Both the position numbers and the translations under genes were made by a program. DNA of 64,000 nucleotides, taken from positions 45,082-109,081 of the forward strand of contig JBHLKM010000016.1 of NCBI GenBank assembly GCA_048886685.1, written 5' to 3'. Origin of the DNA: Candidatus Hodarchaeota archaeon (GTDB lineage Archaea > Asgardarchaeota > Lokiarchaeia > Sigyniarchaeales > SOKP01). Below are positions 5,511 through 7,834 of the stretch, piece after piece. Position 1 is the first letter of the stretch. Each line of letters begins with the position of its first letter. The notes under the pieces were generated by a model. That model was not told the DNA's origin, did not search any database, and saw only the letters and a program-made list of their open reading frames with translations.

Positions 5511-6720
5511 CTATTTTTGCTTTGAAAGGTATCTAATTTTTACGAGTAAATCTCGAAGTTCCATTTTATCATTGTCAGATGTTATGTATTTCTTTTTTAC
5601 TCCTTCTGAAAGCGGGATTGTTTCAATTTTATTTCCTTGGAGAGATACCATATTCCCAAATTTACCTTCTAAAACAAGTTTCATTGCTGCTAATCCAAAC
5701 CTTAATCCTAAAATCCTATCAAATGAATTAGGTGGTCCGGCACGCATGGTGTGACCAAGAACTACACTTCGACATTCGAAATCTACTCCATTTTTCTCAA
5801 ATTCTTGTTTTAAATCGTCTCTTAAGTTTAATTCTTCAACAATTATTTGGGACATATTCAATTTTACTAATAATGGATTACCAAATGTATCCTTAGGTAA
5901 TTTATCAATTGTTTCTTTAGATATGGTTTTAAAATCTCGGTTAAGAGATTCTAAATTCGGATAGGCTCCCTCTGATGTAGCAATTATATGATATTTATAG
6001 CCAGCATTAACTCTTTTTTTCAAAACATCAATAACATCTTTTTCTAAGTCAAATGGCGTTTCTGGGATTAATATTATATCTGCTCCAGCAGATATTCCGC
6101 TATACATTGTTAAAAAACCTGCATCTCTGCCCATTACTTCTACAACAAATACTCTTTGATGCGATCGAGCCGTGGTTGTAAGATTATCCATCGCGTTAGA
6201 GGCTAGTTGTGTCGAACTCCAGAAGCCAAACGTATAATGTGTTCCCTGCAGGTCATTATCAATAGTTTTTGGCACTCCTACTACTTTAGCATCAGCGAAT
6301 CTATACAAATTATCAGCCACTCCAAGAGTATCGTGTTCAGTTTAAAACAGAAGTTATTCTAAAACTCCACCGATAGCAATTAGAGCATCTATTCCTAATT
6401 CTTCAAACTTTTTGGTTAATTCTTTAGCTTTTTCCTCTTTTGCACTTACTCCCTTAAATGGATTCGTCCTACTTGTATATAGGATAGTCCCCCCCACAGT
6501 ATGTAGGTCATCATGTTCTGCTATATTAAGTGGAATTGTTTGGTTTTCCACAAATCCTTTCCATCCCTTAAGGATGCCAACACATTCAATCCCAGTATCA
6601 TAAGCTTTAAGCATGATTCCATAAAGTACGGAATTTAAACCGGGACAGTGTACGACAGTTAAGGAAACCTTTAGACATGGCTCCGCCGCCCGTGAGAATT
6701 CCAACTTTTTTAATTGCTAT
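5511..6720 (-). CDS. pfp: PfkA-family phosphofructokinase, probably PPi-dependent; three exons join(6720..6681,6649..6365,6334..5511), 382 aa
   Basis: Removing the 31-nt and 30-nt inserts restores GILTGGGDCPGLN and IGGDDTLG and gives one frame of 1149 nt. PKTIDND, EVMGR and LGH motifs are intact. GGDD plus PKTIDND is the PPi-type signature. Start appears to be ATA after a GAAGGTGA SD. Confidence 0.88.
6335..6364 (-). other. Putative BHB-like mRNA intron 2 of pfp (30 nt)
   Basis: UAUCG-GUGG-AG^U ... CUGA-AC^A-CGAUA: 9-bp inner stem, 5-bp outer stem, in-frame TAA; splits the Asp codon of GGDD. Confidence 0.8.
6650..6680 (-). other. Putative BHB mRNA intron 1 of pfp (31 nt)
   Basis: GCGG-AG^C ... 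UCGU-AC^A: 4-bp central helix, two 3-nt bulges, internal hairpin; splits the Asp codon of GGGD. Confidence 0.82.
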
Positions 6721-6854
6721 TTATAATCACCTTCATTAATTTTTATTTTTTTGACTAATTAATTAAGCCATTTTTGATTAAAAATGTTATTATGAAGTTA
6801 TATTTAAAAAGATATAAATGAAATTATCTTTCCATTCCTTTTTTTTTTAAAAAT

Positions 6855-7256
6855 CTATTCATTTTCATTATTTCCTAACCATTCTTTAAATGTTTTTTGA
6901 GGGATCATTTCCTGTATTGATATACCTGTCTGTTCTTTAAATTGCTTTTCTATCTCCCTCGTCCATAGCTTCTTATCTATCTGATCATTCAGCTTTATTA
7001 AGACTATACCTCCTCTTGCATCAAAAGCATCACGTTTAAATGAATCTCTTTGCCTTGTTTTGTATTTACTATGCCAATACATCTCCCAAAACTCATATAA
7101 TACCTCATATTTCTTTCCATTTATCAAAACACTGTTATATCCATCTACATGAGATCTCGGGTGAACTTTTTTATTCACTCCCTTAATTTTTATTTGATTT
7201 CCTACAATATTGCGTAAATGTGTATGATCAAATTTTACGCCAAATATTTTTTCCAA
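6855..7256 (-). CDS. Vsr/PD-(D/E)XK-like nuclease domain protein, possibly 5'-truncated
   Basis: VDGY...YEFWEMYWH...QRDSFKR...GIVLIKL pattern; begins immediately after the ZPR1 stop. Confidence 0.5.
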   Translation of the reverse strand: MEKIFGVKFDHTHLRNIVGNQIKIKGVNKKVHPRSHVDGYNSVLINGKKYEVLYEFWEMYWHSKYKTRQRDSFKRDAFDARGGIVLIKLNDQIDKKLWTREIEKQFKEQTGISIQEMIPQKTFKEWLGNNENE

Positions 7257-7264
7257 TAGTAGGT

Positions 7265-7834
7265 TTATTCTGATTCTTTTTTTTCAAATTTTTCAAATTT
7301 ATATTTTGATTTATCTTTTGGGATTATATAGCTCCCTCCTTCAGAATCAATAATTTTTAATGTAAATTCGAATTTTCCTTCTAATGCGTTTTTCAAATTA
7401 TTTAAAAGATCTTCAATCTCAGGTATTTCTGGGTCTCCTTCTTTGAGATTCTTCCTATATATTGAAACGGCACTTTCAAATCTATATAAAATACCTTCTA
7501 CATTAGTATAATAAAAATTGGCTCTGGGACCTGGTTCTACAATTAATTCGAGCTCAGGAATTTCTAATTTTCCTACAGGGGAACGGTAAATCTTTGATTT
7601 AAGGTCTTCTTCAGTTGTCACTTTCAAGGTCATAATTCCTGGATCCATATTTGTTGTTAAAGGAATTACATCATTTTTATGAAAGCTGCAAGTATCGCAT
7701 TCGAACTTCAATATGAGCATCTTGTCTCCATCAGGTAAATCATAGACATTCTTAATGATGTCTATTGTGCCATTTTCACATGAGGGACATTTAAATGAAT
7801 ATAAAATTTCACTATTTTTTTTCTCAGTAGACAT
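7265..7834 (-). CDS. zpr1: ZPR1 zinc-finger protein
   Basis: CPSC...CDTC, LEIPELELIVEPG, TNVEG, GGSYI. Confidence 0.9.
   Translation of the reverse strand: MSTEKKNSEILYSFKCPSCENGTIDIIKNVYDLPDGDKMLILKFECDTCSFHKNDVIPLTTNMDPGIMTLKVTTEEDLKSKIYRSPVGKLEIPELELIVEPGPRANFYYTNVEGILYRFESAVSIYRKNLKEGDPEIPEIEDLLNNLKNALEGKFEFTLKIIDSEGGSYIIPKDKSKYKFEKFEKKESE

Follow-up and report, generated by a model that had tools for sequence, protein, structure and literature searches.

The shared exon context of two introns in an Asgard archaeal pfk gene probably reflects conserved-motif location and BHB shape, with proposed collaborative homing of one of them

The pfk locus and its two inserts

The window analysed here, a stretch of 64,000 nucleotides, comes from a 4.4-Mb, 31%-GC genome whose relatives' proteins are labelled Promethearchaeota/Lokiarchaeota. 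On its minus strand, running from 6720 to 5511, lies pfk, the sole full-length PF00365 phosphofructokinase gene in the assembly. The gene is interrupted by two short inserts, and the region from pfk to zpr1 is laid out as follows.

5511–6334, minus strand: pfk exon 3, PF00365
6335–6364, minus strand: intron 2, 30 nt, BHB-like, in frame with stops, within the GGDD motif
6365–6649, minus strand: pfk exon 2, 285 nt
6650–6680, minus strand: intron 1, 31 nt, BHB, frameshifting, within the GGGD motif, with 4/4 central-helix pairs
6681–6720, minus strand: pfk exon 1, 13 codons plus 1 nt, with no in-frame ATG
6727–6790, minus strand: upstream/promoter block common to intron-1 alleles of unrelated hosts, travelling with exon 1 and intron 1
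6855–7283 (ORF 6855–7256), minus strand: EDxHD/Vsr-like nuclease relic, the C-terminal 133–142 aa of a free-standing family of about 620 aa
7265–7834, minus strand: zpr1, the ancestral upstream neighbour of pfk

Precise removal of both introns restores a single Pfk of 382 aa with intact GGGDCPG and GGDDTLG motifs, and intron-less orthologues exist. The probable start codon, judged from the sequence, is an ATA 6 nt behind an AAGGTGA ribosome-binding site at 6733–6727; eight intron-1 alleles have ATA, ATT or TTG there, preceded by the upstream block that they share. In some intron-1 alleles an out-of-frame ATG lies just upstream of the pfk start (window 6718–6733). Standard gene calls cut genes with such introns short, and 357-aa Pfk calls occur among homologous loci.

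The original prediction for this locus described two unrelated introns in one and the same exon context, and the description holds. Read on the minus strand, each intron is preceded by GG(C/T)GGAG and followed by AC, and each splits an Asp codon after its first base (phase 1), behind Gly-Gly. The two introns resemble each other no more than shuffled sequences do (P=0.37). Their bulges in this genome are AG|C and AG|T on the 5' side and AC|A on the 3' side. Neither intron has a target-site duplication: the terminal repeat is zero and neither junction can slide, while at the other sites surveyed below the slide is at most 3 nt, on one side.

Both introns fit the BHB geometry, a 4-bp central helix between two 3-nt bulges at the exon–intron borders, and keep their structure across an allele set of 17 intron-1 and 11 intron-2 alleles. 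In intron 1 all four central-helix pairs are kept in 17/17 alleles, and exon position −5 co-varies with its intron partner (C-G in 14, T-A in 3). Position +2 pairs with exon G(−7) as G-C or, where two alleles have GAT instead of GAC, as G-U. Intron 2 has a 5-bp exon helix, a 9-bp inner stem and a folding z of −3.4, and its central helix has three of four pairs (relaxed, with a G-A mismatch) in the alleles read. Across its alleles 130/130 cells are paired, with one-sided changes only; because no intron 2 pair changes on both sides, the covariation support rests on intron 1. The genome encodes two EndA-family genes (PF01974) and one RtcB gene (PF01139). By every testable feature the pfk introns appear to belong to the archaeal BHB class, and EndA and RtcB most likely cut both out of the pfk mRNA.

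Intron junctions across 20 sites

Besides the two in pfk, this genome carries 14 further coding-sequence introns, in purA, thioredoxin, cdhA, acetoacetate-CoA ligase, GH38, cobO, uvrB, uL11, RNase HII, a thiolase (two introns), an Fe-S oxidoreductase, a PAC2-like gene and a gamma-carbonic-anhydrase-like gene. The resulting 16 are a lower bound, the sites having come via gene-overlap filters, motif inspection and orthologue checks, and all 16 junctions were checked against intron-less orthologues. Four sites in relatives, namely three relative-only sites and one distant locus judged by motif and geometry only, bring the survey to 20. The introns of the PAC2-like gene (L089; G000 C2 6605–6635) and the gamma-carbonic-anhydrase-like gene (L090; G000 C5 86550–86580), both confirmed against orthologues, are 31-nt BHB introns. 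Ranking de novo BHB scans by folding energy alone gave mostly noise (operon junctions, antisense frames and selenocysteine UGA genes), and the BHB candidates C40+203, C11-37537, C15+74130, C20-9424 and C4-169349 proved ordinary or antisense and were discarded. The tRNA introns were set aside as a junction comparison, automatic boundary calling being too ambiguous for them.

The original prediction had named in advance what would refute a shared target: a larger set of such introns with no junction consensus. Across the 20 sites we found no such consensus, only the BHB signature, and a shared target sequence is refuted by that criterion. Phases are even (7/6/6 among 19 sites). Of these 19 sites, 18 have A at exon position −2 (P=1.7e-7); G is over-represented at −4, −3, +2 and +3, and there is no significant base preference at −1 or +1. 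The first bulge base is A at 19/20 sites on the exon side and at 20/20 on the intron side, four of the 20 sites having come from scans that demanded A at intron −2. What the 20 sites share is structural: A first in both bulges, GC-rich helices and highly conserved motifs.

Spliceosomal proto-splice sites read MAG|G. The archaeal junctions resemble them in the A at −2 and in exons that often end in AG or AA, but they have no +1 consensus and no phase bias, and their −2 A is the bulge base read by EndA (PMC12397907). This first 5' bulge base is held in a cation-pi sandwich by the splicing endonuclease (PMC12397907).

A preferred proto-splice sequence was one of the two explanations first offered for the pfk introns. 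Excised linear or circular introns would re-enter mRNA or DNA at GGAG|AC, or at a looser G-rich A-N|N-G, the route envisaged being reverse splicing by EndA/RtcB and then reverse transcription. GGAG|AC is found at 3/20 sites, all Gly-Asp: the two in pfk and one in purA, a site that played no part in defining the pattern (P about 0.02–0.04). About 0.02 such sites are expected from the other 17 (a post hoc figure), and a column shuffle gives P=0.04; a mild, post hoc excess of GGAG|AC may exist. Two of the eight in-frame GGY-GGA-GAC sites in the genome are also occupied, though these are the very two from which the pattern was drawn. On the other side, 17 of the 20 sites differ, with AA|TG (four sites) commoner than AG|AC (three); this genome has 223 in-frame GGA-GAC sites without an intron; and two intron-1 alleles have GAT where the pattern has GAC. 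The full exon context is present in 26/28 intron alleles and in only 2/81 empty alleles (1/38 at site 1, 1/43 at site 2). Introns 1, 2 and purA are mutually unrelated, and none has another copy in the genome apart from one pfk DNA fragment. Given the general composition of the sites, the 8/9-base likeness of the two pfk sites is within chance (P=0.30, column shuffles) and is mostly coincidence plus structure. We therefore regard insertion at a preferred sequence as unlikely.

The pfk fragment just mentioned is an isolated 232-bp copy on contig C5 of G000 (244014–244245; L338:1533–1764), 95% identical to window 6552–6321. It spans exon 2, intron 2 and 14 nt of exon 3; intron 2 is still in place, unspliced, and matches the G008 allele exactly. 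The copy is a stray DNA-level patch or contamination.

All 14 sites scored against orthologues are more conserved than the median of their gene, and their mean rank is the 87th percentile (P=5e-4), although this test is likely biased, many gene leads having come from recognisable motifs. The pfk sites score 0.92 and 0.89, and the values for three sites from relatives that are free of this bias are 0.95, 0.95 and 0.67. Such a preference is the pattern of homing elements (inteins and group I introns), not of group II or spliceosomal introns (PMC2814812). Both pfk sites are Gly-Gly-Asp because in Pfk both motifs of this kind are glycine-rich loops with Asp at the end, and this determines six of the nine shared bases.

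Alleles in relatives and the nuclease genes beside pfk

We compared 55 non-redundant pfk loci from the genus and from metagenomes. Intron 1 is present at the identical base in 13 and exactly absent from 38, and intron 2 is present at the identical base in 11 and exactly absent from 43; site 1 of G005 is masked and was excluded from the counts. Same-base presence and precise absence across these loci indicate that the inserts are not assembly noise. The pfk introns were not seen in other readable genera of the order. Carriers are scattered over the pfk tree and are more alike than non-carriers only within about −25 to +9 nt of the site.

All 17 intron-1 alleles are 31–32 nt long. The AC ending that the original prediction listed as common to both introns is real in this genome but is an accident of it, since only 1/17 intron-1 and 4/11 intron-2 alleles end that way; other pfk alleles end in AT, AG, AA or TT. 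The first intron base is variable, and the penultimate A is present in all but two of the 28.

The DNA upstream of pfk differs with the state of site 1. Among the 38 loci without intron 1, zpr1 lies directly before pfk in 37, and the remaining one is rearranged; extra DNA separates the two genes in 10 of the 13 carriers (Fisher 3e-8, overstated as the loci are related), the exceptions being L008, L030 and L065. In G022, L071 and L074 this slot holds one LAGLIDADG family (56–61% identical; PF14528, E 8.8e-9), and G004 retains the last 29 codons of it. LAGLIDADG sequences thus lie upstream in 4/13 carriers and 0/38 non-carriers (Fisher 0.003, likewise overstated by relatedness). As a forward test, we examined the five closest database homologues (63–78%). 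All five lie in a zpr1–pfk slot, and all four of the contigs that show pfk have intron 1 and lack intron 2. In total, the eight loci with a LAGLIDADG gene or remnant are all intron-1 positive, against none of the 38 empty alleles. This association between the LAGLIDADG family and intron 1 is an observation; cleavage of the empty site would be the activity behind it.

A more distant homologue (47%, 608 aa) lies directly before a 2-oxoacid oxidoreductase gamma gene with a BHB intron of its own, so related nucleases pair with different genes and junctions. That insert (L345:4490–4530) is a 29-nt perfect BHB in the GFGGQG motif, and its sequence is unrelated to the pfk site. In the upstream slot of the L067 intron-1 allele lies a restriction-endonuclease-like ORF (L067:820–1536) with a PD-(D/E)xK motif recognised by eye.

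Sister pairs (L062/L067, L003/L006 and G035/G022) show sharp recombination borders round the intron-bearing segments. G022 and its empty sister G035 part at the zpr1 stop codon and match again just past intron 1. L067 matches the intron-less L062 at the end of zpr1 and again from about pfk nt 420 on (mostly 93–98%), but across the intron-bearing part the two are only 67–83% identical. The foreign upstream block of intron-1 alleles has a strong ribosome-binding site and then the ATA, ATT or TTG start. Intron 1 thus shows both a co-occurring free-standing nuclease and co-conversion of flanking DNA, two signs of collaborative homing, with cutting presumed.

In the present genome the slot holds a different element. 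The EDxHD-like relic lacks the N-terminal 480 aa or so of its family, along with the first conserved acidic motif, and is not a complete gene. Pfam gave no match for it, and ESM Atlas gave weak DUF559-type leads only. A fold search with the catalytic domain of the family returned I-Bth0305I as the top match (Z 8.9, rmsd 3.2, 96 aligned), followed by Ngo0050 (Z 7.9) and Vsr (7.7); the model, built from five sequences, has a pLDDT of 69. By predicted fold, the family is EDxHD-like. I-Bth0305I is itself an EDxHD homing endonuclease (PMC3239194), intron-encoded in phage recA, whereas genes of the relic family stand alone next to pfk, and the copy in this genome is truncated.

The relic is absent from the zpr1–pfk slots of relatives except L048, where the gene has the same upstream position (92% over 473 nt). 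The family adjoins pfk in four of its five database members, and in L067 and L069 as well. In five loci an EDxHD-like gene is convergent at the pfk 3' end, two of them with displaced old pfk 3' pieces beyond the nuclease. These pieces (L040, L041) suggest that the EDxHD-like nuclease enters through the 3' part of pfk, and the arrangement suggests, more broadly, that genes inserted downstream of pfk may be 3'-end replacement cassettes. Duplicate pfk 3' fragments beyond a gene inserted downstream are found at L040:1–64, L041:1–57 and L061:4994–5188. The EDxHD-like gene accompanies intron 2 in G000, L067 and L069, and as L049 has the gene without the intron, no partnership with intron 2 is shown.

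The second explanation first offered was that the pfk introns are the legacy of homing introns that target the most conserved motifs and later lost their endonuclease. The location in conserved motifs is borne out, while the lost endonuclease is not: the nucleases are free-standing neighbours of pfk. The longer, endonuclease-encoding inserts expected at the two positions in relatives were not found, all 28 pfk alleles being 30–32 nt, and no ORF-bearing insert was found at the other sites examined, about 240 orthologous loci. Classical homing introns that once held the endonuclease in their loop and shrank to 30 nt, a course proposed for cbf5 and observed in Aeropyrum rRNA introns, with the neighbouring nucleases as later arrivals, are not without precedent: archaeal rRNA introns are known to have deletion derivatives (PMC2738675), and turnover of the HEG has been published as another way in which collaborative loci may originate (PMC10448857). 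For pfk we nonetheless find such an origin quite improbable.

The introns could also be old and vertically inherited, repeatedly lost by precise conversion, with the nucleases merely surviving beside intron-immune alleles. Carriers share sequence only close to the site, the three carriers named above have no cassette, and two empty alleles, L011 and L057, keep a carrier-type 5' context, all of which would fit. Third positions are near saturation, and an old gain followed by precise loss on several occasions would likewise account for part of the pattern. The sharp borders in the sister pairs, the foreign promoter block common to unrelated carriers and the confinement of the introns to one genus among those readable argue the other way, and we hold this history to be very unlikely. 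That the inserts are unspliced, leaving pfk a pseudogene or a gene read by frameshifting, is scarcely credible: this allele has no ATG start, but it is the only pfk copy, the exons are intact in all carriers, pairing is kept in every allele and the same geometry recurs at 20 sites.

A proposed route of spread and its relatives

The reading we consider probable is that the shared exon context arises from conserved-motif location combined with the BHB shape, not from a common target, and that intron 1 spread by collaborative homing. Two filters would act on the sites. By the first, introns persist in the most conserved motifs, which in Pfk are the two Gly-Gly-Asp loops; by the second, the BHB would set the third positions left free, with −2 as the bulge A, +2 pairing G(−7) as C or as a U wobble, and −5 pairing an intron purine. 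Selection after insertion and structural preference at insertion would leave the same trace in comparative data, which cannot part them. For intron 1, a LAGLIDADG nuclease encoded between zpr1 and pfk would cut the empty site, and donor-templated repair would copy the nuclease gene, promoter, exon 1 and intron 1 in one conversion tract, the intron conferring immunity to further cutting. The nuclease gene would later be lost, decay or be replaced, as by the EDxHD-like relic that fills the slot here. Intron 2 may ride on longer tracts or have its own separate driver.

We lean slightly towards a broader version, in which free-standing homing endonucleases of several families, each for one conserved motif, form a general intron-delivery system of Lokiarchaeia. 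If so, a module of promoter, first exon and a 30-nt EndA-spliced intron moves between lineages with the intron as its immunity part, and protein genes in the closest prokaryotic relatives of eukaryotes gain multiple introns without self-splicing or an intron-encoded protein.

On a narrower question the locus is decisive: the sites have no target sequence in common and share only the shape that EndA requires, together with a preference for catalytic motifs. It also lends itself directly to tests of how introns spread, since the nuclease is named, a target of about 30 bp is predicted, and both empty and occupied alleles occur naturally. Were cutting and splicing confirmed, it would provide a concrete route by which Asgard protein genes gain several introns.

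In the literature searched, cbf5 is the only archaeal coding sequence with a BHB intron (PMC7714728, PMC2738675), and we found no Asgard mRNA BHB introns there; how Asgard tRNA introns arrived is left open in a 2026 preprint about them (10.64898/2026.10.13.758758). The cbf5 pre-mRNA intron of Desulfurococcales and Sulfolobales (Watanabe 2002; Yokobori 2009, PMC2738675) is likewise a short ORF-less BHB intron (16–44 nt) in a coding sequence, gained and lost across relatives like those of pfk. It occupies one site in one gene, whereas here there are two introns in one metabolic gene, at least 16 in one Asgard genome and adjoining nuclease genes; splicing has been shown for cbf5 and is inferred for pfk. 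The archaeal rRNA BHB introns with LAGLIDADG genes, and their deletion derivatives, share BHB splicing, the nuclease family and site-specific mobility, but there the endonuclease lies inside the intron and the host is rRNA, and no such long form was found at pfk.

In phage collaborative homing (Bonocora and Shub 2009; Zeng 2009), as summarised within PMC10448857, a free-standing endonuclease acts with an ORF-less group I intron. To the extent of that summary, the likeness to pfk lies in the nuclease gene beside the intron-bearing gene, their co-occurrence and the conserved-motif targets. The pfk system differs from what is summarised there in its 30-nt, protein-spliced BHB intron, its archaeal chromosome and its LAGLIDADG nuclease, and in a tract that also replaces the promoter and start codon. 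The pfk introns are not members of the proto-splice class or of the ORF-bearing homing introns, and the system behind them is one of known parts in a new arrangement.

Several other genes in the survey have features of their own. The RNase HII intron (L172–L192) occurs in essentially all genus members read and is absent from other genera, whereas the pfk introns are patchy. LAGLIDADG genes or remnants adjoin the intron-bearing cobO, acetoacetate-CoA ligase and GH38 alleles (L230, L326, L082). The uL11 gene has up to three introns in one relative, and a second thioredoxin site, with a 25-nt intron, occurs in G010 and G028 (L136, L313, L314).
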